DNA from: a virus
Strand: one strand, 5' to 3'
IMG/VR virus record: IMGVR_UViG_3300042400_000292
DNA length: 38,314 nucleotides
The notes beneath the pieces are model-generated. The model made no database searches, had not been told where the DNA came from, and worked only from the letters and a program-made list of their open reading frames with translations. Shown here in pieces: positions 3,189 to 23,083 of this stretch. The first letter of the stretch is position 1. Each line of letters begins with the position of its first letter. Position numbers and translations under genes: made by a program.

Positions 3189-3953
3189 ATGAGTGTTTCA
3201 AAAAGAGTATATGTATTAACATTTTGCAAGGATATAAATCAGTTATATGGTTCATTGCTTGTATTTAAAAGTATTCGTATCGGGTTCCCAACTGCTGAAA
3301 TTATAGTAATTGATAACAATAGTATTACTGATGCTGTTATTGAGATAGAAAAAGCAGCGCATAGTGTTAATGCACAATTTGTTAAATTGGAAAATCAAGT
3401 GCTTCACCGTGATTATTTAAGGTATATTTTAAACTGTGAAAATGATGACGCTCAAGTATATATAATTGATCCTGATGTAATTTTTTGGAAAAACGTAGAA
3501 CTATTTACTACCAATAAATTGCTGGCTGGTAGACTAGTGCCTGAGTTCTTTGATGAATATACCGATACTATAACTAAACCAAGAATACACACTTCATTCT
3601 TGTATATACCTTGTGTAAAACTGTTAATAAACAAAATTAATGCACTGGAAAATAAATATTGTACTGACCTAATAAAATATACAACGCTTAAAGTAAATGG
3701 CAACTGGACAATGTGGGACACGTTTGGCCAAGTTTTTGAATGTTTGTATAGTGATATTGAAATATTTACAGAAAAACAAAATGATTGTTTTGACCATATA
3801 TTTTGTGGTAGTCATCTAAACATAATAGCAAAAAGGCACAACAATCCAAGACTACATGAGATTCATCGCTTATCTATTGAAAGCCCTCAAGAGCTTAAAG
3901 GGATATGGAGAGAGCAGCATGATTTCTTTTTATCAACAATTAATAAGGAATAG
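3189..3953 (+). CDS. GT-A/GT2-like glycosyltransferase-like protein (254 aa)
   Basis: N-terminal VYVLTFC..AEIIVIDNNSITD and a DxD-like YIIDPDVIF match the layout of family-2 glycosyltransferases. By eye it looks more AT-rich than its neighbours. Confidence 0.55.
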   Translation: MSVSKRVYVLTFCKDINQLYGSLLVFKSIRIGFPTAEIIVIDNNSITDAVIEIEKAAHSVNAQFVKLENQVLHRDYLRYILNCENDDAQVYIIDPDVIFWKNVELFTTNKLLAGRLVPEFFDEYTDTITKPRIHTSFLYIPCVKLLINKINALENKYCTDLIKYTTLKVNGNWTMWDTFGQVFECLYSDIEIFTEKQNDCFDHIFCGSHLNIIAKRHNNPRLHEIHRLSIESPQELKGIWREQHDFFLSTINKE

Positions 3954-3955
3954 TT

Positions 3956-4495
3956 ATGTGGGAACAATTAATACCAATGTTGTCTGAATTATTTAAGAGT
4001 GGAGCAGGATCGGCTGGAGCAAGTGGCGGTGGATTAATGGATTTATTAAGTAAGGGCAGCAGTAAAATGGGTGGTGCTAATAGCGCAATGTCTGGACAGG
4101 TTGCAGGTGCTGTATTGCCACAAACCCAATTTGGTCAACACATGACTGGATCACCAACAGTCACTAATCCTATGATGTCACCAGTTGAAGGTGCTGCCGT
4201 ATCAACTCCAAGTACAGGTAGTAGTGGTAAAAAATGGGAAAAGTGGGTTACACCACAAGATACATCTGCCGGACTATCTGCTGCACAACCTAATGACCCC
4301 ATGTATGGGCAGATGATGCAACAGGTTATGCAACAGCAGCAACCTCAACAACAAAGACAGCCAATGACTTCTGTTGGTGTAGCACAACTTCCACAGACAG
4401 GTATTCCACAAGCTACTATGCCTCAAATGCCTGGTGCTATTCATCCAAACGAAGATATGATGTCATTATTTAGAAGATTAATGGGAGGTGCGTAG
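3956..4495 (+). CDS. G/S/M/Q/P-rich low-complexity internal virion-type protein (179 aa)
   Basis: Track ORF starting 3 nt after the upstream stop. Contains MQQVMQQQQPQQQRQP and a glycine/serine-rich N-terminus. Confidence 0.65.
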   Translation: MWEQLIPMLSELFKSGAGSAGASGGGLMDLLSKGSSKMGGANSAMSGQVAGAVLPQTQFGQHMTGSPTVTNPMMSPVEGAAVSTPSTGSSGKKWEKWVTPQDTSAGLSAAQPNDPMYGQMMQQVMQQQQPQQQRQPMTSVGVAQLPQTGIPQATMPQMPGAIHPNEDMMSLFRRLMGGA

Positions 4496-5679
4496 TGGCA
4501 TTTAATATTGTTGATATGTTAAGAGGTGATATTGTCCAGCGACAACAACCTCAACAAAATTCAAGCTCAGGTCTTGGCGAGATGCTTTCATATCTAATGC
4601 AAAGTAACAACCAACCTGTTGCAAAAGTTCCTGAACAAGCTCAATACTGGAATCCTCCGAGTTTAAGTGAGATTGCTCAAGTTTCTGCTAATAGACGACA
4701 AGAAAAGCAACAGGAAGATTCATTTGCAAAATTGCGTGAATTGATTGGTACTAAAGGAACTGCTGGTAATAATATTCCAATACCATTTAGGGGTGCAGTA
4801 ATGCCAACTAAAGGAACAGGATTAATGGGTGGACAAATAACCATGCCAGAATTTGCTATTGGTCTTGCTGGTCTTCCTGACAAAGTATTAGCATCTCAAG
4901 GTTTTGATATGATAACTAACTTGTCAAAACCAACTCCTCAACCTGCTCTACATTCTATGGGTGTTCCTAATAAACCTGGTTATAAAGTTAATTTCTATCT
5001 TGATGCTAATAACCAACCTGTACCAGTTGGAGAACCATACAAAGCAGATGGTGGTATTAATATTAATACTGGTGCTACAGGTGCTATGGGTAATATATTA
5101 ACACCAGCGCAAAACAAAGAAATTGGTCTTAATGAAAAAGATGTTGCACAAGTTAATCCACAAGGAGGTATTAGTGTTATTAGCAAAGCACCTGCACCAG
5201 TTGAATTAAAAGATTGGCAAAGAAAAGATTTAGACTTTGCTACAAGAATGATAAAAGCAGATAAGATTTTGTCTGAAGTTGGTACTAATTACAGCCCAGC
5301 AGCTGTAAAAGCTGCAAGATTTTTAGAAAATGTGCCATTTGTAGATGATTTAGCTTATGCTAATTTAGATACAAACGATCAAAAGGTTTTGCAAGCTCAA
5401 CTCCAACTTCTTAATTCTGTATTAAGACCTGAATCTGGAGCTGTTATTGGTGATACTGAATTTTCAACTGGAGAAAGACAATATTTTCCAAGACCAAATG
5501 ATCCACAGGAGTTATTAGATCAAAAGGCTGCAGCAAGAAAAACTGCAATAGAAGGATTGTTGCTTGGAATACCTAAAGAATTTTATCCAAAAGATTATGG
5601 ATCATATTCTCCATCATCAACAGGAAATTCTAATTTATCGCATACTGATTATTTAAAATCAATAGGGGAAAAACCATGA
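4495..5679 (+). CDS. Internal virion/ejection-type protein (394 aa)
   Basis: GTG start overlapping the upstream TAG, with SD GGAGG 6 nt upstream. Long ORF in the structural operon. No enzymatic motif seen. Confidence 0.7.
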   Translation: MAFNIVDMLRGDIVQRQQPQQNSSSGLGEMLSYLMQSNNQPVAKVPEQAQYWNPPSLSEIAQVSANRRQEKQQEDSFAKLRELIGTKGTAGNNIPIPFRGAVMPTKGTGLMGGQITMPEFAIGLAGLPDKVLASQGFDMITNLSKPTPQPALHSMGVPNKPGYKVNFYLDANNQPVPVGEPYKADGGININTGATGAMGNILTPAQNKEIGLNEKDVAQVNPQGGISVISKAPAPVELKDWQRKDLDFATRMIKADKILSEVGTNYSPAAVKAARFLENVPFVDDLAYANLDTNDQKVLQAQLQLLNSVLRPESGAVIGDTEFSTGERQYFPRPNDPQELLDQKAAARKTAIEGLLLGIPKEFYPKDYGSYSPSSTGNSNLSHTDYLKSIGEKP

Positions 5680-7670
5680 GTTCCTATGGTGATTTACAAA
5701 AAGCATTTTATCTAGCGCAACAAAGAGGCGATACAGAGTATGCCACAAAGTTTGCAAAAGAATTAGCTGCACAAGGAACTGATTATAGTGGAAAGCAAGT
5801 TGAAGAAGCCAACCTACAGGCTGGTGATACTTTAGGTGGTAATGTTTGGAATGGTAAAGGATGGGTATCTCCTGATAAGTATGATCTGCCATTAAAAACT
5901 GTTGCTAGCACACCAACTGCACAAGAAAACAAACCTAAATCATCTATGTTTGGTCTTGGTGGACGTGCTATGTTAGAGGGTGTCGCTGGAGCTCCTGCTG
6001 GTATTTATAATGCAATTAGTGCTTTAGGCAATATTGGCATGCCTGAAAATAAAGTTGTAACTCCATTAACACCACCAGAAAGTATAAATACTCAACAGTA
6101 TGGTACTAAGTTAGCTGATTATTTAGGATTACCACAACCTACTAATGAGCAAGCAATTCCAATGGAAGTTGCAAGAACTATATCTGGATTTGCTGTTCCA
6201 TTAGGAATGTTAAGCAAAATTAAATCCATTCCATCAATGGCAGCTACAATGATTGGGTCTAATGCTCCAAAAGCAACTGCAATAACTGCTGGTTTATCAA
6301 AATATGCTACTGAAAAGGCAAAAGAAAAAGGATTGCCAGAATGGGAGCAAAGTCTTTTTGGAATGTTGACTGGACTTGGAGCTGGTAGCGTATTAGGAAT
6401 GGCTGCTCCAACATCGAGAGCGGTATTAAGGACAGGACAAAGTAGTTTTGGCACATTAGAACCATTGGCAGGTAGGTTATTAAATCGTCAAGCTGGTGCT
6501 GAAGCTGGTACTGTTGCTAACTTATTAGAAACTGGTGGCGTGCAGGGTGTTAAACCTATTGCTGGCTTTCAACCAAAAACATCAGATATTGCAGGAAACG
6601 CTGGCATATCTGCATTGGCAAGGTTTGTTGAAAATGATCCTAATTCATCCACAATATTAAGTGAGCGTTTATTTAACAATGCCAAATCATTAAAAGACTA
6701 TGTTAATAGAACTATTGGTTCTGATGCAAGCATAACTAAAAAACAAGATTATCTATATGATGTTGTTAATACGGTTTCTAAGCCTATGAGAGATAGAAAC
6801 TTACCAACTAATATTGATAATGTAATAAATTCTATTGATAACGCACTACTTAAGAACAAAGGAAATCCAGCTATTGAAGGTGCATTACAAAGTATTAAAG
6901 AGAAAATACCTGAAGGAGATGTTGGGTTTAATGAAGTTTATAATTTTAAACAGTATATTGATGATGCTTTGCGTGGAAAATATGATGATCCTGCTTCAAT
7001 GCAAATTGCAAAATCAGGAACAGCTTTGAATAATGTAAAAACAGAACTAGCAAAATCATTAACAAATACTGAATCAGAATTTGGTAAATTCTTAAAAACA
7101 CAAGCTATTGGTGTAAGACAACTTAATCAATCTAAACAAGCTGAAAAAATGATTAACCAAGCAACTAATAAAACACCAATTATTAGTAATAGAACAGGTA
7201 TTCAAGAAGAGGTATTTCCATTGTCTGCTGCTAACTTAAGAACTCAAATTCTTAATGAAAAAGCAATGAGTAAGTTATCACCTAATCAGCAAGCTATTTT
7301 TGAAAATGCACAAAGAGCAGCAACCGCAGGAACAAGAGGAAGCATGGGTATTGCTAGAGCATCAAATACTATGCAAAACCTTAAAATGAATGAATTAATT
7401 TCTGATGATGTTACTAGAGCATTACTTGGTTCTGATGTTAAAGATCAACCTGGAATCTTATCTAATATTTTACGTCCAGTAACAAGAGGCTTATCAAATG
7501 TTACTGGAAGAACTGGTGAGATTGCTGATATATTAGCGAAAGCAGAATTAGACCCTGCATATGCAGCTATGTTGATGCGAAAGTATAAATTATCTCCAAC
7601 TACTGATATGAAATCGGCTGCTGGTCGTAATGCTTTGTATGGCGCATTAACACAATATCAAAATAAATAA
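5676..7670 (+). CDS. Large internal virion/ejection-type protein (664 aa)
   Basis: ATGA overlap at 5676-5679. It is the largest gene of the distal structural block and is helical/Ala-Gly rich. The call rests on position and size. Confidence 0.7.
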   Translation: MSSYGDLQKAFYLAQQRGDTEYATKFAKELAAQGTDYSGKQVEEANLQAGDTLGGNVWNGKGWVSPDKYDLPLKTVASTPTAQENKPKSSMFGLGGRAMLEGVAGAPAGIYNAISALGNIGMPENKVVTPLTPPESINTQQYGTKLADYLGLPQPTNEQAIPMEVARTISGFAVPLGMLSKIKSIPSMAATMIGSNAPKATAITAGLSKYATEKAKEKGLPEWEQSLFGMLTGLGAGSVLGMAAPTSRAVLRTGQSSFGTLEPLAGRLLNRQAGAEAGTVANLLETGGVQGVKPIAGFQPKTSDIAGNAGISALARFVENDPNSSTILSERLFNNAKSLKDYVNRTIGSDASITKKQDYLYDVVNTVSKPMRDRNLPTNIDNVINSIDNALLKNKGNPAIEGALQSIKEKIPEGDVGFNEVYNFKQYIDDALRGKYDDPASMQIAKSGTALNNVKTELAKSLTNTESEFGKFLKTQAIGVRQLNQSKQAEKMINQATNKTPIISNRTGIQEEVFPLSAANLRTQILNEKAMSKLSPNQQAIFENAQRAATAGTRGSMGIARASNTMQNLKMNELISDDVTRALLGSDVKDQPGILSNILRPVTRGLSNVTGRTGEIADILAKAELDPAYAAMLMRKYKLSPTTDMKSAAGRNALYGALTQYQNK

Positions 7671-7682
7671 GGAGAATAGATA

Positions 7683-7820
7683 ATGCCATCAAAATCAAAA
7701 GCACAAGAAAAGTTAATGCAAGCAGCAGCACATAATCCTAAGTTTGCAAAGAAAGTCAAGATACCAGTTGATGTTGCTCAAGAGTTTGTAAAAGCTGATA
7801 AAGCTAAAAGGAAAAAATAG
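7683..7820 (+). CDS. Small basic protein (45 aa), DUF3008-like
   Basis: Below the track cutoff. SD AAGGAG at 7670-7675. MPSKSKAQEKLMQAAAHNPKF...VAQEFVKADKAKRKK resembles the MP.KSKAQ family as I recall it. Confidence 0.5.
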   Translation: MPSKSKAQEKLMQAAAHNPKFAKKVKIPVDVAQEFVKADKAKRKK

Positions 7821-11577: not shown

Positions 11578-12000
11578 TTATTTTACAGAATGTAAAGATT
11601 TTTTATCTTTCCAGAAAATAAATGCTTCATATGCTCCAACATAACCTAATCCAATACAAACGAAAGCTCCCTGTTTCTGGGCTTCCAGCAGGTATTCAAC
11701 CTGTCCATCCTGCCATTTTGAACGTGTATGATCTTGTCGTTTTAATTCACAAACGAACGCAACGCTTGCTGGAATAATAATATCTGGTGCGCCTTTCACC
11801 ATTCCTTCACTCTTTTGTTTAGTTGCCTGGTAGAAAGTTCGCAATCCTTCATTCCTAATGTGCGTAGCAATCTTTCCATAACTATCTGGATATTCTCGTC
11901 TTAACTTTGCAAAAAATGTTACTGCTTCAGCAGCTTCAGAAGGACATTCACCTCTAAACTCTTTATTGCCAAACACGGGTATATCATTGTGGAACTTCAT
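11578..12000 (-). CDS. VRR-NUC family nuclease (140 aa)
   Basis: Track ORF trimmed to MKFHNDIPVF. PD-(D/E)xK core GAPDIIIP...FVCELKRQ, then QVEYLLEAQKQGAFV as in VRR-NUC domains. Follows an SF2 helicase, which is the usual pairing. Confidence 0.8.
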   Translation of the reverse strand: MKFHNDIPVFGNKEFRGECPSEAAEAVTFFAKLRREYPDSYGKIATHIRNEGLRTFYQATKQKSEGMVKGAPDIIIPASVAFVCELKRQDHTRSKWQDGQVEYLLEAQKQGAFVCIGLGYVGAYEAFIFWKDKKSLHSVK

Positions 12001-13768
12001 CAGCTGTCCTGTTGTAGTCGTAAATTTTAAAGAAATCACCACTCTTTTTATATGTGATGGTATTTGGTGTTGTAAAACCATTATCTGTAAACTTCATAAA
12101 TGCATCATAGCTACTCTGCATTTTCATCGTAAACCAAACAGGAAATGATCTATATTCAGTTATAAAATCAACTCTTATGCACTCGTTCCCTGCTTTGCTT
12201 AGTGTGGGAGTTGCTCGCATTGCAACAACCTTATCTGTTTGGATTTGCGTCGGGTCTTTCTTTTTCATTTGGAAGTCTGCTACTAACTTACTATTTGGGT
12301 CAATTAGTTCTCCCTTGCAACTGCAACAATAACGTGCAGCAATATCATTTTCTTCTTCACAATGTGGGCATGGTTTAAACGTCCAACGATAATCACATCT
12401 AACAAGTTTTCTAATAGTTTTATTAAATACCTCACCAAAGCATCTTCTTCCATGATGCGCTGGCATCTCTCCATATTCTGTTTCTAATCGTATGCCTTCA
12501 AGATCAATAAAATAACCATTAACATCAACTTCATGCTTTGCTTCATTAAGCACTGGCGCAAATTCATTATTAGCATTGCACTGTGGGCATCTAGCTTTGA
12601 TTGGTTCACCAGCTCCGTAATCACCTGATGCTTCTATCTCAGGATTAAATAAGTCACCATCAGGACAATGACGACTAATATTTTCAGCATAATCCAGTAT
12701 CAAACAATCATCTTTATTGTTATCAATACGCAATCCTCTGCCGATTATTTGTTGGAGCAAACTAACTGACTCTGTAGCTCTTAAAATAGCTATTAAATCA
12801 ACGTGTACACAGTCAAAGCCAACACAAAGCACAGAAACATTAACTAAATATTTTAATTGCCTAGCTTTGAATTTTCGCAGTATTTGTTCACGTTCCAACT
12901 TAGGTGTTTCTCCTGTAACTATGCAAGATAAACTTGGTGGTAAAGACTGCATAACCTCGTGAGCATGTTGTACTGTCGCAGAGAAAATCATTACACCTTG
13001 TCTATCTACTGCTTGCGAAACAATATCACCTACAATCGCACTTGTGAGCCTTCCTTGACCATGATAAGCTCTATCAACATCTGCTTTTGCAAACTTACCC
13101 ATGCTATTAAGTTGCATATCCAGGGTTTCATAATGACCTGAATTAATTGCACCAATGACAGGTTTTGTTAAGTATCCTTGCTGTATTAAATCTCTGGCAT
13201 AAACAGTAAATACTCTTGCAGTAAAATAAGGGTTCTTAGTTTTATCATTTCCATAAGCATTGCCATTCTCATCCATTCTATATATATATCCATCACCAAG
13301 CCTGTATGGAGTAGCTGAAAGACCTATCACACGCAGATTAGGATTACAGGAAACTAAAGATTCAATAATACTTTTTACCGTTGGTGTTATGCGATGCGCT
13401 TCATCTAATACAACAGCACAAAATTTAGAACCAAATCTGTGTATTTTATTCTTGACGCTAACAGGTGTGCCAAAAACAACTGGATGTTTTAAACACGTTT
13501 CCCCAACGCTGGCGCTAAACAAGCTACATTCATTGCCAGTATCTCGGTATTTTTCTGCATTTTGTTCTAACAGCTCTTTTGATGGTACAAGGCATAATAT
13601 ATGCTTTCCACCACTAACTTGGTGCAATGTGTTGGCTATTGCTGCAACAATTAAAGATTTGCCACTCCCTGTTGGCAATTCTAATACGCATGGGTCAGTA
13701 CATTTCTTTATCCAGTCTATAGCAGCATCATGCGCTTGTTGTTGGTAGGGGCGGAGTTTCATAATCAT
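11984..13768 (-). CDS. SF2 DEAH-box helicase (ResIII-like) with a C-terminal zinc-ribbon extension (594 aa)
   Basis: Motif I ELPTGSGKS and motif II VVLDEAHR, with helicase-C motifs (LVNVSVLCVGFD, QQIIGRGLR). The C-terminus has CPQC ... CPHCEEENDIAARYCCSC. Confidence 0.9.
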   Translation of the reverse strand: MIMKLRPYQQQAHDAAIDWIKKCTDPCVLELPTGSGKSLIVAAIANTLHQVSGGKHILCLVPSKELLEQNAEKYRDTGNECSLFSASVGETCLKHPVVFGTPVSVKNKIHRFGSKFCAVVLDEAHRITPTVKSIIESLVSCNPNLRVIGLSATPYRLGDGYIYRMDENGNAYGNDKTKNPYFTARVFTVYARDLIQQGYLTKPVIGAINSGHYETLDMQLNSMGKFAKADVDRAYHGQGRLTSAIVGDIVSQAVDRQGVMIFSATVQHAHEVMQSLPPSLSCIVTGETPKLEREQILRKFKARQLKYLVNVSVLCVGFDCVHVDLIAILRATESVSLLQQIIGRGLRIDNNKDDCLILDYAENISRHCPDGDLFNPEIEASGDYGAGEPIKARCPQCNANNEFAPVLNEAKHEVDVNGYFIDLEGIRLETEYGEMPAHHGRRCFGEVFNKTIRKLVRCDYRWTFKPCPHCEEENDIAARYCCSCKGELIDPNSKLVADFQMKKKDPTQIQTDKVVAMRATPTLSKAGNECIRVDFITEYRSFPVWFTMKMQSSYDAFMKFTDNGFTTPNTITYKKSGDFFKIYDYNRTADEVPQ

Positions 13769-13995
13769 TAATTACTTAGTTCAATACGTTTAAAAAAAGA
13801 ATACCATTTTGATGGCTTTGCTGTATTGCCAAGCGTTAATAAACCATGATCGTTTTTTAAAATAGCTATTGCTATAGCTTTGTATGATGGAGCTAAGTTA
13901 TTTTTCATTAATTCAACAGGAACTTCATCAGGAATATCTATTGGATAACCCTGTTCTTTCCATTTATTAATATAATCTTGTATTTTCCCAATCAT
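13768..13995 (-). CDS. Small protein (75 aa) carrying the ..AI.ILKNDH.. motif also present at the IbrA-like C-terminus
   Basis: PSYKAIAIAILKNDHGLLTLG here aligns with ASWKRFAITILKNDHTCKYMG at the end of 15228..16529. The stop shares one base with the helicase ATG. Confidence 0.65.
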   Translation of the reverse strand: MIGKIQDYINKWKEQGYPIDIPDEVPVELMKNNLAPSYKAIAIAILKNDHGLLTLGNTAKPSKWYSFFKRIELSN

Positions 13996-14350
13996 TTAAT
14001 TTTATCCTTGCTGCATTGTTTGCTTCTATTTTTTGATAATCATTTAATAAAAAGAAGCCACTTTTAAATGTGCTTGGTATTTTATTTGCCAAACACATTG
14101 ATGACTGCCCAAGCCAAGCTATTCTATTTATACTTGGATTAGATAAAAAATGCTCTGAAGAATATTTCCATGTTTTTATTACTTCATCCATTGAATAATT
14201 AAACAACTCAATATCTGATAAAAAAATTGCATATTCTTCTTTGCACTGTTCTTTTGTTTTTCCATCAGGTGGAATAGTGCTATAAAATCCTGCTTTATAG
14301 CACTCCCATAGCCACCAAGGATGATAAATCCTAAGCCCATTCTTCTTCAT
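13967..14350 (-). CDS. Hypothetical protein (127 aa), member of the IbrA/IbrB-like cluster
   Basis: Track ORF trimmed to MKKNGLRIYHPWWLWECYKAGFY. Contains NRIAWLGQSSMCLA. Overlaps both neighbours. Confidence 0.65.
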   Translation of the reverse strand: MKKNGLRIYHPWWLWECYKAGFYSTIPPDGKTKEQCKEEYAIFLSDIELFNYSMDEVIKTWKYSSEHFLSNPSINRIAWLGQSSMCLANKIPSTFKSGFFLLNDYQKIEANNAARIKLNDWENTRLY

Positions 14351-14858
14351 CTGCTTCCCAACTATCAGAAAAACTACGATTTTGAAATAAAGCAGCAACG
14401 CCAGTTATTTGTTTTAATCTTAATAGCTCATCAACGCTCATTCCAATATGTTTACATATCCAGAAATCTCCTTTCCCCATTTCAACAAGCTCAGAAACTA
14501 TAGTACTCATTAATTCAATATTATGAGATCCTCTAGCTCTGTTATGTCTGATAGTAGATGCCATTCTGTCGCCAAGTTCTTTTTTAATTACAACAATTGG
14601 CAGCATGTTATTTTCACGCTCTCTTATGCGCTCACTATTTTTCATTGTTAAATAGCGGTGAAAACCATCTACTACAATGTAAATGTCTTTTGTATCATCA
14701 TAATAAGTAACAATTGGCTGCGTATATCCATCTTCCCATATTGATGTTTCTAATAAAGCCATTTCAGGTGGAGCAACTGCATTAGGGTTGTAATCATTTG
14801 CAGTTACTTGGCTAAATGGAACGCAAAGTACGTTATAAACTGGAGATTTAAATGTCAT
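14331..14858 (-). CDS. ParB/Srx N-terminal-domain protein, IbrB-like (175 aa)
   Basis: Trimmed to MTFKSPVYNV. Motifs ANDYNPNAV, IVVDGFHRY and TIRHNRARGSH are typical of ParB-like nuclease-domain (IbrB-type) proteins. Confidence 0.8.
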   Translation of the reverse strand: MTFKSPVYNVLCVPFSQVTANDYNPNAVAPPEMALLETSIWEDGYTQPIVTYYDDTKDIYIVVDGFHRYLTMKNSERIRERENNMLPIVVIKKELGDRMASTIRHNRARGSHNIELMSTIVSELVEMGKGDFWICKHIGMSVDELLRLKQITGVAALFQNRSFSDSWEADEEEWA

Positions 14859-15231
14859 ATGAATTATCCTTATTGTGGACTTCAAGTCCTGTTAATGGAG
14901 GGTTAAATACGCATAGCAGCTCTACTGTAGAAAAAGCTATAAATGAATGCGGATCATTGTTATCAAGAACGTACATTGTGCCAGGCAATATCCTATGCTT
15001 TTCTCCTGTATTTTTATTTGTAATACACCCATGTCCTTTTATGCAATAACAAGCTTCAAGATGATTTTTATAATGCCAATTTTGCTCTCCATTTGGAGGT
15101 ATTATTGTATTTGTTACAGAAAACCCCATATTGTCTTTTTCAAGCAAAAACCTTCTGCTTAAAAAACCTCCTTTTGGGCATTTAACTTCTCTTTCTGTTC
15201 CTTTTAATTCATGCAATTTAATTATTTTCAT
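14848..15231 (-). CDS. Ectoine-synthase (EctC) family cupin (127 aa)
   Basis: Collinear over its full length with EctC as I recall it: NWHYKNHLEACYCIKGHG, PGTMYVLD, NDPHSF, CVFNPPLTGLEVHNKDNSY. ATGA overlap with the IbrA-like gene. Confidence 0.8.
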   Translation of the reverse strand: MKIIKLHELKGTEREVKCPKGGFLSRRFLLEKDNMGFSVTNTIIPPNGEQNWHYKNHLEACYCIKGHGCITNKNTGEKHRILPGTMYVLDNNDPHSFIAFSTVELLCVFNPPLTGLEVHNKDNSYDI

Positions 15232-16529
15232 AATTTTTTATATTTTTCCATAATATTACGTTGTCTCAATGTTTGTTCTTTTGTTGGAGCAAATCCCATG
15301 TATTTACAGGTATGGTCATTTTTTAAAATAGTAATTGCAAATCGTTTCCATGACGCAATTTCACTATTATTATTTCTTATATCATCAGTATGGTCTGGGT
15401 ATTTTTTAATTATCACTCTAATTTTGTCTTTTCTTCCATGAGGAGTTAATCCGTTTTCTTTTATCTTTATACGGTTACTTTCTCTTAGTTGTTTTAAAGT
15501 GCTGTCTGATACGGTTTGCCCAACTCTACCCCAGTATTTTATAGACTGAACAAACCGCATTTTAAAATTTATAGAAACTTCCTCCGGTAAAGTTGCTAAT
15601 AAAAATTTAACAAATGATTTCCATGTATGGCCTTCTGGAAGTTTAAAAGTATTGTAATTAAGTTGTTTTCCATAAGTTGCTATAAAATTAGCACCTTGTA
15701 CTCTGGCACATAATTTAGCCCATGTATGAGGATCAATAACTCGATACAAGCCTAAACTAGATTTAGACTCAGACATAAATGGAGACGCAACCCTCATTCT
15801 ATGAACTGGAATACCTGCTTTATAAAAAATATCGTAAAGTTTGTTGTAATCCCAATCATATATATAATTAGCCGTCCAAACATCTTCTGTTCTCCAATCA
15901 TAAATGGGGTAACAATTATAAGAATGTTCAGTATTCTTTTTTGTCCACATTTGACCGCCTAATGTTTCCTTGCGTTGATTCATAATTGCTCTAAACCTGT
16001 TTAAACTTTCAACAGTTCTAATTCCAATTAAATTTGCGCAAGTTTTGCCTTGTGAATACCATTCTGAAAATCCATCCCAGAATTTATCGTATGGCATATC
16101 TTCTTCAAAAAATGGAAAATTATGATTTTCAAAATTAACAATGTAATCTTGTTTTGGCATAGGACGTATCCATCTTTCTTTATCTCTATTACCCCAGCAT
16201 TGCCATTCAACTGCATACGAACTTATTGTGCAAGGAAGCGTTATTGGCAAACAACACCAATAAATTTCAAGCAAATCTCTATTTGAATCAAGTATTCTGT
16301 GCATAAACTCTACAGACAATTCATAATTTGCTTCATTGTCTAAAATTTGAATACCTATTTTTTTTGTTATTCCTTTTTCCCTCATATATTTCAAAACAAA
16401 ATTAAGCATTACTCCAGAATCTTTGCCACCTGAAAATGAAATATATATTCTTTCAAAATTATTAAATATAAAATCTAATCTTTCTACGCCTGCATCCCAA
16501 ACATTCTTATTTCTGTTATAAGTTCTCAT
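15228..16529 (-). CDS. PAPS-reductase-like PP-loop enzyme with a DUF3440-type C-terminal extension, IbrA-like (433 aa)
   Basis: PP-loop ISFSGGKDSGVML. About 430 aa long with a large C-terminal extension ending WKRFAITILKNDH. Start set at the ATGA overlap with the YqaJ stop (16526-16529). Confidence 0.85.
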   Translation of the reverse strand: MRTYNRNKNVWDAGVERLDFIFNNFERIYISFSGGKDSGVMLNFVLKYMREKGITKKIGIQILDNEANYELSVEFMHRILDSNRDLLEIYWCCLPITLPCTISSYAVEWQCWGNRDKERWIRPMPKQDYIVNFENHNFPFFEEDMPYDKFWDGFSEWYSQGKTCANLIGIRTVESLNRFRAIMNQRKETLGGQMWTKKNTEHSYNCYPIYDWRTEDVWTANYIYDWDYNKLYDIFYKAGIPVHRMRVASPFMSESKSSLGLYRVIDPHTWAKLCARVQGANFIATYGKQLNYNTFKLPEGHTWKSFVKFLLATLPEEVSINFKMRFVQSIKYWGRVGQTVSDSTLKQLRESNRIKIKENGLTPHGRKDKIRVIIKKYPDHTDDIRNNNSEIASWKRFAITILKNDHTCKYMGFAPTKEQTLRQRNIMEKYKKL

Positions 16530-17389
16530 GTCAATCTCCAATAACTACTAGGAGCAGACTGGTATTTAGTTAGGTCTGCATCAGGCATTAGCTCTTTTAT
16601 GGCTTTAGCGTAGGATATAGCGCCTTCACGGTGTACTTGTGTTAGTTTGTGACCATTAATTTCACTATCCTTACCATCTGCTAACTTAACTATTTCATCC
16701 AACAATCTTTTCTTTTCTGCTTCAAGCTCTTTTATTTGCTCTGCTAACATTAAATAGCGATCAACTTGTCCTTCGCACCTAACTTGTTGGCGTTTTTCTT
16801 CAAGATACTTTTTTGCCTGCGGTAGTTCACGCTCAACAAGATATTCATTGTAGAAGTCTTTTAATTTTGGTAAATATTCTTCAATAGCTAATGGATTAAA
16901 TTGCACTGTTTCAAGCATGTAACCGTGTGCAGACCATTGGTAAAAATGACACCATTGGCGACCAGTAACAAATAATTGGATTTGTATCTGTAACCAGTAA
17001 TGCGTTTGGTAGTCTATGCTTTTAAATTCTGGTGGGTTCTTGTCACGCAACCCATATGGGCATTTAATCTCTATCAATAAATTGTCCCCAATCAAACCGT
17101 CTGGTGATGCTCCAAGCCAATCTTCAAAAGTATGAAAACCAGTTTCTACGACTTTTGTATTAAACTTCAATTCGTAATCAGCTAAAGCATTGGGTTCGTT
17201 ATACGTTCCATAGCTAGTCGCAACATTACCGGTAAACTCACTTGGGTAGCCATGATATTGACGCACCATATTACGCATAACATCTTCTGGCTTCATGAAT
17301 GGTGAAAATCCTAGAATTGCACCGACATTACTTCCAGTTACACGACCATTTCTTTTTTTAAACCATTCTTCTGTACGTTGTTGTTCCAT
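16526..17389 (-). CDS. YqaJ-type (lambda-Exo-like) recombination exonuclease with a coiled-coil tail (287 aa)
   Basis: EEWFKKRNGRVTGSNVGAILG, then the PD-(D/E)xK core ASPDGLIGDNLLIEIKCP. The C-terminal ~90 aa are coiled-coil-like. Confidence 0.85.
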   Translation of the reverse strand: MEQQRTEEWFKKRNGRVTGSNVGAILGFSPFMKPEDVMRNMVRQYHGYPSEFTGNVATSYGTYNEPNALADYELKFNTKVVETGFHTFEDWLGASPDGLIGDNLLIEIKCPYGLRDKNPPEFKSIDYQTHYWLQIQIQLFVTGRQWCHFYQWSAHGYMLETVQFNPLAIEEYLPKLKDFYNEYLVERELPQAKKYLEEKRQQVRCEGQVDRYLMLAEQIKELEAEKKRLLDEIVKLADGKDSEINGHKLTQVHREGAISYAKAIKELMPDADLTKYQSAPSSYWRLT

Positions 17390-18297: not shown

Positions 18298-18975
18298 TTA
18301 TGTTGTAAATTTATTGCCTTTTGATAAATTATCAGAAGCTGTTAAATATTGAAGATTGTTAATAACATGGAGTCCACATACTAATTCTCCTTTAATTGGA
18401 ATGATATGATCAACATGCATTCCTTTCGGACAATTTTTATATATTTCTTTTATCTCATTTAAATCAGCCCACAAAGGAGTTGCATTTAATTTTTGCATTT
18501 GTCTTAATCTGCATCTATGCAACCCTTTTTTTGGGTTTTGTTTTTGATATTTACTGTTATTTCTTCTAATATCATTTATGTTATTTTTTCTATATTCTTT
18601 GTAATAAAGACTTCTTTTATCTTTATTTTTTTCATGCCATTCTAGTTTTTTTTCTTTACCGCCATTTAAGTAATATTTCTTTTGTATTTCAGTTCTTTTT
18701 TCTGGATTGTTTTGTTGCCAAATCTTAGATAATTGCAAAGCATGATCTTTATTTTTCTCATACCATGCTTTGCTTTTAGCATTTAATCTTTCAGTATTTT
18801 TTTTATAATATTGAGCTTTTTTTTCAGTAATAGCTTCAATGTTATCTAATCTATACTTATTAACTTTTTCTTTAACACAATCAGCGCAAACGTTGTTATA
18901 ACCATCTTTATTGCTTTTAGCTTTATAAAATAAATCTAAATGCTTTTCTATATTACATTTTTTACAAGTTTTCAT
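18298..18975 (-). CDS. Free-standing HNH endonuclease (225 aa)
   Basis: N-terminal CKKC...CADC, a K/N/Y-rich helical repeat region, and a C-terminal HNH core HVDHIIPI...NLQYLTASDNLSKGN. Very AT-rich and bounded by its own intergenic spacers. Confidence 0.8.
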   Translation of the reverse strand: MKTCKKCNIEKHLDLFYKAKSNKDGYNNVCADCVKEKVNKYRLDNIEAITEKKAQYYKKNTERLNAKSKAWYEKNKDHALQLSKIWQQNNPEKRTEIQKKYYLNGGKEKKLEWHEKNKDKRSLYYKEYRKNNINDIRRNNSKYQKQNPKKGLHRCRLRQMQKLNATPLWADLNEIKEIYKNCPKGMHVDHIIPIKGELVCGLHVINNLQYLTASDNLSKGNKFTT

Positions 18976-19901: not shown

Positions 19902-20072
19902 ATGTTCACACCAGAAGAAATCATAAAAAAACTGCAACCTTTAAACTTAACTTATCTATCAAAGAATACTGGCATTAAATATAATGTATTGTGGAAGTTT
20001 GCCAATAATAAATTGAAGATTATTCCTTATGATTTAATTAAAAGACTGAGTGACTATTTCAATGTTGCCTGA
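19902..20072 (+). CDS. Small HTH-like protein (56 aa), first gene of the rightward arm
   Basis: Below the track cutoff. SD AAGGGA. LTYLSKNTGIKYNVLWKFANN looks like an HTH. Overlaps the primase start by 11 nt. Confidence 0.5.
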   Translation: MFTPEEIIKKLQPLNLTYLSKNTGIKYNVLWKFANNKLKIIPYDLIKRLSDYFNVA

Positions 20073-22486: not shown

Positions 22487-22579
22487 AAAACTGTGGCTAG
22501 TCAATCGAAGATGAACACCCTTAAGCAAGGTTGCCACATAACTTTTCGCTTAATAATTCTATGCTTAAGGAATTTTCAA

Positions 22580-23083
22580 ATGACAGAACTTACACAACAA
22601 AGACTTAAAGAACTTTTATCTTATGACCATGAAACTGGTTTGTTTACTTGGCTGGTAAGTAAAGGATGCGTTAAAGCTAATTCGGTTTCAGGAACTAAAC
22701 GCAAAGATGGATATATTCAAATTAGAACTAATAAGAAATTATATCTATCACACCGTCTTGCATGGTTATACGTATACGGAGAATTACCTGAAAATGATTT
22801 AGATCATATTAATGAAGTTAAAGACGACAATCGTATAGTTAATTTAAGATTAGCTACAGATCAAGAAAATATGCAAAATGTTTCAAGTCCAAGAATTGAT
22901 AACACATCAGGGTTAAGGGGTGTTCATTGGTATAAACGAGTTAAAAAATGGCAATCACAAATAATGGTAAATAAAAAACGAATACACTTAGGACTTTTCA
23001 ACACTGCAAAAGAGGCTTATGAAGCTTATTTAAAAGCTAAAAGAGAGAGTCATCTATTTTGGGTAGAAAACAAAAAAATATGA
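22580..23083 (+). CDS. HNH homing-type endonuclease with a C-terminal AP2 DNA-binding domain (167 aa)
   Basis: Track ORF trimmed to MTELTQQRLKELL (SD AAGG). HNH_3 core LSHRLAWLYVYGELPENDLDHIN..NRIVNLRLAT..EN. AP2 domain SGLRGVHWYKRVKKWQSQI..IHLGLFNTAKEA. Confidence 0.85.
   Translation: MTELTQQRLKELLSYDHETGLFTWLVSKGCVKANSVSGTKRKDGYIQIRTNKKLYLSHRLAWLYVYGELPENDLDHINEVKDDNRIVNLRLATDQENMQNVSSPRIDNTSGLRGVHWYKRVKKWQSQIMVNKKRIHLGLFNTAKEAYEAYLKAKRESHLFWVENKKI

Follow-up and report, generated by a model that had tools for sequence, protein, structure and literature searches.

The 38,314-nucleotide stretch analysed here, IMG/VR virus record IMGVR_UViG_3300042400_000292 (the window), carries five overlapping minus-strand genes encoding an IbrA-like PP-loop enzyme, an EctC-family iron cupin, an IbrB-like protein of the ParB/Srx type and two small proteins, here called orf4 and orf5. 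The IbrA-like gene (15228-16529, 433 aa, with PAPS_reduct and DUF3440 domains) is followed by the cupin gene (14848-15231, 127 aa, Ectoine_synth), the IbrB-like gene (14331-14858, 175 aa, PHROG 2159), orf4 (13967-14350, 127 aa, a conserved protein modelled as all-α) and orf5 (13768-13995, 75 aa, with a weak DUF3440 match and assigned to phrog_15645). The original prediction, made from the letters alone, had placed five such genes between a YqaJ exonuclease and a superfamily 2 (SF2) helicase, chained by start/stop overlaps, and had recognised the IbrA and EctC families among them. The open reading frame (ORF) listing and a check of the junctions confirmed this layout, with 4-nt ATGA overlaps at 16526-16529 and 15228-15231 and then overlaps of 11, 20, 29 and 1 nt, and both family calls held up in profile searches (below). 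Shine-Dalgarno-like AAGGA/GGAG motifs lie 5' of several internal starts, and the starts chosen for IbrB and orf4 match the N-termini of their homologues. The G+C content of the cassette, 0.29-0.35, is slightly lower than that of its flanks (0.37).

Window proteins were searched with phmmer against the six-frame ORFs of every fetched locus, scored as stop-to-stop segments. The complete set was found in the cultured phages Gaia, Nebkiss and XCL1123 and in some 30 divergent viral loci, and the IbrA-EctC-IbrB triad is conserved in other genomes. Its recurrence in dozens of unrelated viral contigs speaks against a chance grouping. Gaia and Nebkiss infect M. smegmatis, and XCL1123 infects P. marina. 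In Mycobacterium phage Gaia, gp103 is IbrA, gp104 is a fusion of EctC and IbrB, gp106 is orf4 and gp107 is orf5. The set is also complete in Pseudoalteromonas phage XCL1123, in twelve near-identical IMG/VR contigs, in every divergent IMG/VR locus reached via IbrA (65-75% identity) with enough flanking sequence, and in loci reached independently via EctC homologues. The two small proteins had been described as following the triad; they are present, but they turn out to be members of the same five-gene unit.

The order of the genes varies while the set stays together. With A for IbrA, C for EctC, B for IbrB, 4 and 5 for the small ORFs and a tilde for a fusion, the order is A-C-B-4-5 in most loci, C~B-4-5-A in L042 and L043, B-4-5-A-C in L046, L047, L055 and L056, and A-4-5-C-B in L020-L022. 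EctC and IbrB are fused in six loci (Gaia gp104, L036, L042, L043, L048 and L052), bearing out the suggestion that the genes of the cluster are coupled. IbrB is fused to orf4 in P0285 and in most loci of the type II modules described below (L062-L081), orf4 to orf5 in 15 of the 148 best family representatives, and orf5 to IbrA in L055, so that every neighbouring pair is fused somewhere. Conservation through rearrangement, together with this closed chain of fusions, is strong evidence that the five genes form one functional unit, probably a physical complex.

IbrA/IbrB modules fall into three types. Type I consists of a SNF2-type helicase with IbrA and IbrB and is found in Streptococcus phage D4276, Lactobacillus phage AQ113 and Flavobacterium phage 2A. 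Type II consists of IbrB, usually fused to orf4, and IbrA, and is found in Microcystis phage Mwe-JY13 and in phage contigs binned into metagenome-assembled genomes (MAGs) from many phyla; MAG host labels are unreliable, and a scan of the genome collection for orf4 gave MAG contigs only and no isolate chromosome. The arrangement of the window, which has EctC and a free-standing orf5, is type III. Around modules of types II and III lie ordinary genes of phage replication and recombination (DnaB, ERF, RecT, SSB, Prim-Pol, Pol III alpha, uracil-DNA glycosylase (UDG) and NinG), and a census of these neighbours returned no further conserved partner. In phage D4276 (L024), the accessory region between lysin and cro holds the type I trio of helicase, IbrA and IbrB (3941-7722) and, two genes away, the anti-CRISPR AcrIIA5, which lends circumstantial support to an anti-defence neighbourhood. 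Prophage copies of the five-gene module may already be on record in Mycobacterium abscessus: prophage prophiGD21-3 is described as encoding a PAPS reductase and, three genes away, a protein in which cysteine-dioxygenase (cupin) motifs are recognised (PMC8092301), and a basal group of EctC-like proteins is found only in this species (PMC5924519).

The IbrA-like protein matches Pfam DUF3440 (PF11922) at 4.9e-60 (202.8 bits, profile positions 1-180 of 182) and PAPS_reduct (PF01507) at 1.4e-9 (38.7 bits, cutoff 22.5), both over cutoff, and belongs to phrog_2302. Its SGGKDS loop is invariant among aligned homologues, and an adjacent IbrB-type ParB partner is present in the window and in all related loci. 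An AlphaFold2 model was of moderate quality, with a predicted local distance difference test score (pLDDT) of 70. A Foldseek search with the full-length model, informative for the N-terminal domain only, places that domain in the PAPS-reductase clade: the sulfate adenylyltransferase subunit CysD (1ZUN), the PAPS domain of FAD synthase, FMN adenylyltransferase (FMNAT) and PAPS/APS reductases outrank the tRNA enzymes TtuA, NcsA and TilS that were also among the top matches. Relatives in the PAPS-reductase clade adenylate sulfate and phosphate groups, or work on groups that are already adenylated. Residues 303-373 show a helix-helix-helix-hairpin order in the model that resembles, and may be, a winged helix. 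Searching the DUF3440 profile against the PDB gave only spurious WD40-repeat matches and an insignificant match to LnaB (E=0.25), which were not used.

IbrA is strongly conserved. The window protein is 66-68% identical to its homologues in Gaia and XCL1123, reaching 66% with the Gaia copy although the hosts are taxonomically distant, and identities of 66-80% are found across phages of Mycobacterium, Pseudoalteromonas and metagenomes. This suggests a universal substrate rather than a host-specific protein target. Identity is 73-96% among the best 120 database matches, and the clusters found at E<1e-10 number at least 8000. Four cysteines in the window protein, C92, C93, C100 and C111 (YWCCLPITLPCT..WQCWG), belong to a motif, Y-W-C-C-L-P-I-T-L-P-C-T...W-Q-C-W-G, that together with C274 is found in every type III sequence and in no type I or type II sequence. 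The motif probably forms a metal or Fe-S centre. As it co-varies perfectly with the presence of EctC, the arrival of the cupin coincides with a new, probably metal- or Fe-S-binding, site in IbrA.

The cupin matches Pfam Ectoine_synth (PF06339) at 2.2e-44 (151.2 bits against a cutoff of 27) and NCBIfam NF009806 with 153.6 bits (cutoff 128), and aligns to crystal structures of P. lautus EctC (5ONM-type) at 3e-27. The iron triad is retained as E59, Y87 and H95, corresponding to Glu57, Tyr84 and His92; these ligands are invariant in all module copies taken from loci, and among 120 database homologues there is one exception, a Met at His-92. Module copies also keep the equivalents of Ser23, Arg25, Thr40, Tyr52 and Phe106, which contact the amino-acid end of the substrate and product in EctC (PMC6344544). 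What they have lost is Trp-21. This residue is invariant in 437 cluster-encoded and 145 orphan EctCs, and the W21A variant retains 9.7% activity (PMC6344544). No module copy has it: the smaller Phe, Gly or Met, or else Leu, takes its place, or the alignment is gapped there; the window protein has Phe23. Asn-38 was considered as a second discriminator of phage EctCs, since it differs in module copies, and was rejected because the EctC of a real cluster (L086) has His there. Our reading of the alignment is that module copies keep cyclodehydration chemistry and a diaminobutyrate-like substrate end with an enlarged pocket on the acyl side, which would imply a different substrate.

Cellular EctCs provide a useful comparison. 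The window protein is 49-53% identical to them, with 53% to the L086 protein from a true ectABCD cluster, and Trp-21 is kept in all those checked, including the solitary copies (L023, L059-L061 and L088), whose neighbourhoods are unrelated to the module. Module copies share with these proteins the family, the fold, the iron ligands and most substrate and product contacts, and differ from them in lying within, or being fused to, IbrA/IbrB in the absence of an ectAB context and in the replacement of Trp-21. No ectA or ectB was found in the window or in the related viral loci examined. Among GenBank phages, EctC homologues are confined to Gaia, Nebkiss and XCL1123, each time next to a 'PAPS reductase', and to one unverified gut scaffold (L089); the latter carries an EctC-like gene (37% identity) and no module gene on the available flank, which extends about 1.2 kb to the scaffold end on one side and 4 kb on the other. 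Of the cellular solitary EctCs, the nearest (about 50% identity) are on contigs of 0.4-2 Mb (L023, L059, L060 and L061) and share a neighbourhood of their own, lacking ectAB and containing FMN_red/Flavodoxin_2, a methyltransferase, DUF1295/PEMT, a major facilitator superfamily (MFS) transporter and Chalcone_3, which may represent a separate, unsolved EctC-type pathway.

IbrB had been read as a ParB protein, and this stands in part: it matches PHROG 2159 ('ParB-like') at 2.5e-74 and its profile finds ParB, but Pfam ParB_N remains below threshold (16.6 bits against 26.3). A profile of IbrB homologues matched H. pylori ParB (4UMK) at 1.7e-4, the ParB-fold serine kinase SbnI at 0.017, and also Noc. 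A ParB/Srx nucleoside triphosphate (NTP)-binding fold is very likely from these profile matches. The DGxHR-type phosphate-binding motif (DGFHR here; D64, G65, H67 and R68) is invariant in 17 diverse homologues and is accompanied by a second motif, TIRHNRARGxH, and the C-terminal ~30 residues are helix-turn-helix (HTH)-like. Traits of canonical partition ParBs are missing: TIGR00180 scores 13.5 bits against a cutoff of 58, the motif is DGFHR rather than GERR, and no ParA is encoded nearby. One 637-aa IbrB~orf4 homologue in the representative library (P0309) has an intein-like insert of ~260 aa placed exactly within the invariant DGY|TQP motif, beginning with Cys and ending in His-Asn, followed by Thr. 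Inteins usually occupy catalytic sites of essential replication enzymes, and the position of the insert is therefore a hint that the motif is functionally critical.

In modules of types II and III, IbrB has orf4 as its obligate partner, and fusions of orf4 with IbrB or orf5 are frequent. The orf4 family comprises 788 representative clusters. Orf4 gave no match in Pfam, PHROG, NCBIfam or PADLOC, nor in the PDB by sequence or profile. Its AlphaFold2 model is all-α with a pLDDT of 95; Foldseek found no fold match for it in the PDB (best E=2, template modelling score, TM, below 0.3), and the sole match in BFVD was the orf4 homologue of XCL1123. Judged from the model, orf4 would be a protein without a known fold. 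His10, Cys17, Cys65 and Cys86 are near-invariant in the family, with Ser at position 65 in the window. The C-terminus of many orf4 proteins, including the IbrB~orf4 fusions P0290, P0296 and P0309, is a short conserved tail that finishes on an aromatic residue (..MRLF, ..DIY, ..ELY; ..TRLY in the window) and may be a docking peptide. Orf5 is limited to type III modules and is sometimes fused to orf4 or IbrA. It weakly matches the last 35 positions of Pfam DUF3440 (138-172, 5e-4) and shares the motif A-I-x-I-L-K-N-D-H with the C-terminus of IbrA, and a profile of the family found no match in the PDB. By sequence, orf5 is a predicted free-standing paralogue of the C-terminal 'ILKNDH' subdomain of DUF3440.

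We compared the module with systems built from related parts. The IbrA/IbrB pair of the E. coli ECOR-9 island, YbdN/YbdM in K-12, has the same adjacent PAPS_reduct+DUF3440 and ParB/Srx-like proteins (PHROGs 2302 and 2159), to which the window module adds EctC, orf4, orf5 and the invariant four-Cys motif of IbrA. Activation of eib genes in ECOR-9 is reportedly the sole phenotype of IbrAB/YbdNM. In the three type I phages examined (Streptococcus, Lactobacillus and Flavobacterium), whose IbrA is 28-41% identical to that of the window, a SNF2-type helicase stands beside IbrA/IbrB in place of the three extra genes.

The Dnd system (DndC with DndB) and Ssp/BREX type 4 (SspD/BrxP) also pair a PAPS-reductase-clade ATP pyrophosphatase with a DGxHR protein of the ParB superfamily, and do so on DNA, offering a mechanistic template for adenylating an oxygen on DNA. 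Membership in either system was considered for IbrA and rejected, as its matches are far below membership level: TIGR03183 (DndC) gives 21.8 bits against a cutoff of 290.4, PADLOC DndC 1e-7 over ~60 residues and PADLOC BrxP 17.8 bits over 24 residues. The PADLOC scan of the five proteins returned nothing for the other four. Neither DndA, DndD, DndE, SspBC, PglZ or BrxL nor other BREX-4 partners (DUF4007, BrxC) were among the flanking genes examined. The window module has no restriction partner, and its DUF3440 domain, EctC, orf4 and orf5 have no counterpart in those systems. Dpd 7-deazaguanine modification (DpdA/DpdB/DpdC) likewise has a ParB-like ATPase, DpdB, that assists an enzyme modifying DNA bases; no tRNA-guanine transglycosylase (TGT)/DpdA, QueC/D/E or FolE was found in the module, the listed neighbour families or the flanking window ORFs scanned. 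A phage-borne precedent is p0018 of Vibrio phage 44E38.1, a PAPS~Dam methylase fusion experimentally linked to anti-Dnd activity (bioRxiv 10.1101/2021.05.05.442762), in which a PAPS-reductase-like domain is tied to escape from a defence based on DNA modification, although it has a PAPS~Dam architecture and no DUF3440, ParB or EctC. Putative anti-defence operons under Aca regulation have likewise been noted to contain PAPS reductases (PMC13551039).

Taken together, we favour the view that the five proteins form an ATP-dependent, DNA-directed covalent modification complex that protects phage DNA, and put its probability at roughly 35%. The genes would encode one multi-protein complex made early in infection. 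IbrB, with its ParB/Srx NTP-binding fold and HTH, would bind DNA alone or with NTP and position the complex, and orf4 and orf5 would act as adaptors bridging IbrB to IbrA, orf5 by mimicking the C-terminal subdomain of IbrA. The PP-loop of IbrA would then adenylate an oxygen of the target with release of pyrophosphate, as its closest structural relatives (CysD, FMN adenylyltransferase and DndC-type enzymes) do on sulfate or phosphate, and a nitrogen nucleophile would displace AMP. Finally, the EctC-type cupin would eliminate water and close an N-acyl-diamine-like side chain to a cyclic amidine, the ectoine-synthase reaction on another substrate, with the four-Cys site of IbrA probably holding a metal or Fe-S centre needed for this extended chemistry. 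The pay-off would be phage DNA refractory to host nucleases. Consistent with such a complex, three intact catalytic centres are kept in a conserved module; EctC, the IbrA Cys motif and orf5 co-vary by module type; IbrB combines a ParB N-domain with an HTH-like tail; and types II and III lie among replication and recombination genes. The assignment to DNA modification or counter-defence draws on analogy: the DndC/DndB pair uses the same two folds on DNA, a phage PAPS-domain protein confers anti-Dnd activity, and PAPS reductases occur in the Aca-regulated operons.

A more specific version, in which the module installs a DNA hypermodification of a kind not seen before, seems to us quite unlikely. 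Here, a base carbonyl or backbone phosphate oxygen would be adenylated, an amino-acid-derived diamine unit (e.g. 3-amino-3-carboxypropyl or diaminobutyrate-like) attached, and the EctC paralogue would cyclise it to a cationic, ectoine-like cyclic amidine on DNA. If true, EctC would be the first cupin cyclodehydratase with a nucleic acid substrate, and the 20-year-old IbrAB/YbdNM family would gain a biochemical function, as would orf4, whose fold is apparently new.

Several points weigh against a DNA-directed complex. The DNA adduct is predicted by analogy, and the original phenotype of IbrAB is said to be activation of gene expression rather than DNA modification. EctC is a closed-barrel small-molecule enzyme, and we know of no cupin of this family that acts on a polymer. 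DNA binding by IbrB does not follow from its fold, which amino-acid kinases (SerK, SbnI) share, and no DNA-binding fold was demonstrated for DUF3440 by profile search of the PDB or for orf4 by profile and Foldseek searches. The IbrA model is poor over the Cys motif and the most conserved stretch of DUF3440. Loci were retrieved by conserved-peptide seeds, and the 100% co-occurrence of the five genes holds for relatives sharing those peptides.

The main rival is a small-molecule pathway, which we consider fairly unlikely. The module would make or destroy a soluble metabolite or nucleotide derivative, with IbrB as an ATP-dependent kinase of the SerK/SbnI kind, IbrA as an adenylyltransferase or amide-forming ligase and EctC as the cycliser to an ectoine-like cyclic amidine; such a product might block a host defence, imitate or sequester a signal, or supply nucleotide metabolism. 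Such a pathway would fit the chemistry and architecture of EctC, whose residues for the α-amino/carboxylate end of diaminobutyrate are conserved, as well as the SbnI match of the IbrB profile, the likeness of its DGxHR motif to the Srx/SerK group, and the small-molecule substrates of CysD and FMNAT, the nearest structural neighbours of IbrA. However, the neighbour census found no aminotransferase, acetyltransferase or other precursor-supply gene conserved near the module, and free diaminobutyrate is not universal, yet the module is found in phages assigned to very different hosts. The HTH-like tail of IbrB and the placement of the module within replication/recombination operons also count against such a pathway.

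Modification of RNA is, in our view, very unlikely. IbrA would act like TilS, TtcA, TtuA or NcsA on a base of host or phage RNA and EctC would mature the adduct, reprogramming translation or evading defences that target tRNA. The tRNA enzymes among the Foldseek matches, a Cys cluster that recalls [4Fe-4S] tRNA thiolases and is specific to one module type, and the extreme conservation of IbrA, which fits a universal RNA substrate, are compatible with this. On the other hand, PAPS-reductase-clade enzymes outrank the tRNA enzymes, a tRNA scan found no tRNA gene in the window, Pfam and NCBIfam scans detected no RNA-binding domain (THUMP, PUA, etc.), and the genomic company of the module is DNA metabolism.

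We give similarly little credence to a regulatory module, in which IbrA and IbrB would co-activate (pro)phage gene expression, IbrB serving as a DNA-binding switch that the enzymes only tune. The historical annotation of the family is 'co-activator of prophage gene expression', a LysR-type regulator controls the E. coli ybdNM operon (PMC9068703), and the HTH-like segment of IbrB would suit a switch. Against this, SGGKDS, the Fe triad and DGFHR are invariant across hundreds of sequences, an IbrA identity of 66-80% across phyla is atypical for a regulator, and an effect on expression could be secondary to DNA modification. Hardly credible is an auxiliary metabolic gene, with the cupin as a true ectoine synthase easing host osmotic stress: an above-threshold family match, 53% identity to a real-cluster EctC and osmotic-stress claims for phage genes (PMC12647753, PMC13079714) have to be set against the absence of ectA and ectB, the constant location of the gene within, and its occasional fusion to, the IbrA/IbrB module, and the absence from all module copies of the invariant Trp-21 on which the activity of real EctCs depends.

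The module context thus contradicts the osmotic-stress reading of phage ectC made in those two recent papers, one of which calls these genes previously unseen in viruses. The original prediction knew of no description of an IbrA-EctC-IbrB triad. We found no paper analysing the triad, but the GenBank records of Gaia (gp104) and XCL1123 already carry the label 'ectoine synthase/ParB multidomain protein' beside 'PAPS reductase'. A search of the literature on IbrA/IbrB, DUF3440, ybdNM and ectoine synthase with ParB or phage returned no analysis of the five-gene module, and a 2025 survey of ParB-fold fusions mentions neither EctC nor PAPS reductase. New here are the membership of the small ORFs in the unit, the five-gene recurrence, the permuted orders, the fusion chain and the EctC-type-specific features. 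IbrA/IbrB-type pairs are very widespread, both in the number of clusters matching IbrA and in the presence of the ybdNM pair in E. coli K-12, and have been without a biochemical function since 2002. The five-gene variant offers a handle on that function, with three recognisable enzymes, a type-specific metal motif, a fusion chain that predicts topology and three cultured phages, and it bears on the role of 'solitary EctC-type' proteins (PMC5924519). Should the product be a DNA adduct, the chemistry of this modification would be new and of use for anti-restriction biology and for labelling DNA.

The module sits in a minus-strand early operon at about 8-20 kb of the window, visible as a change in the sign of GC skew. 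The signs of GC and AT skew both switch at ~8 kb and ~20 kb, with plus-strand blocks on either side of this early/recombination operon, and a primase-helicase gene begins at 20050. The YqaJ/RecE-like exonuclease gene (16526-17389, minus strand; Pfam YqaJ 7e-21) is the upstream neighbour, joined to IbrA by the 4-nt ATGA overlap; it is context outside the five-gene module, and the same adjacency is seen in Microcystis phage Mwe-JY13. Downstream, the SF2 helicase gene (11984-13768, minus strand; ResIII/DEAD/Helicase_C by Pfam and PHROG) overlaps orf5 by 1 nt. A helicase also lies nearby in L020, L041, L076 and L087 and, as gp102, beside gp103 in Gaia. The helicase flank of the original prediction is present and a recurrent neighbour of IbrA/IbrB modules, but it is not constant. 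As a sixth module member it was rejected: frequent near IbrA/IbrB, it is yet rare in the type III neighbour census.

A 167-aa ORF on the minus strand (11578-12081, phrog_824, no Pfam match) runs into the 3' end of the helicase gene, sharing 98 nt with it in another frame; unless translation starts at an internal codon, the overlap is unusually long. An endonuclease-VII/HNH-like gene (18298-18975, minus strand) lies between SSB and Sak4-like genes in the lowest-GC kilobase of the window (0.28), and an HNH_3+AP2 endonuclease gene (22493-23083, plus strand) immediately precedes the terminase genes. The two probably inserted as homing or mobile elements.

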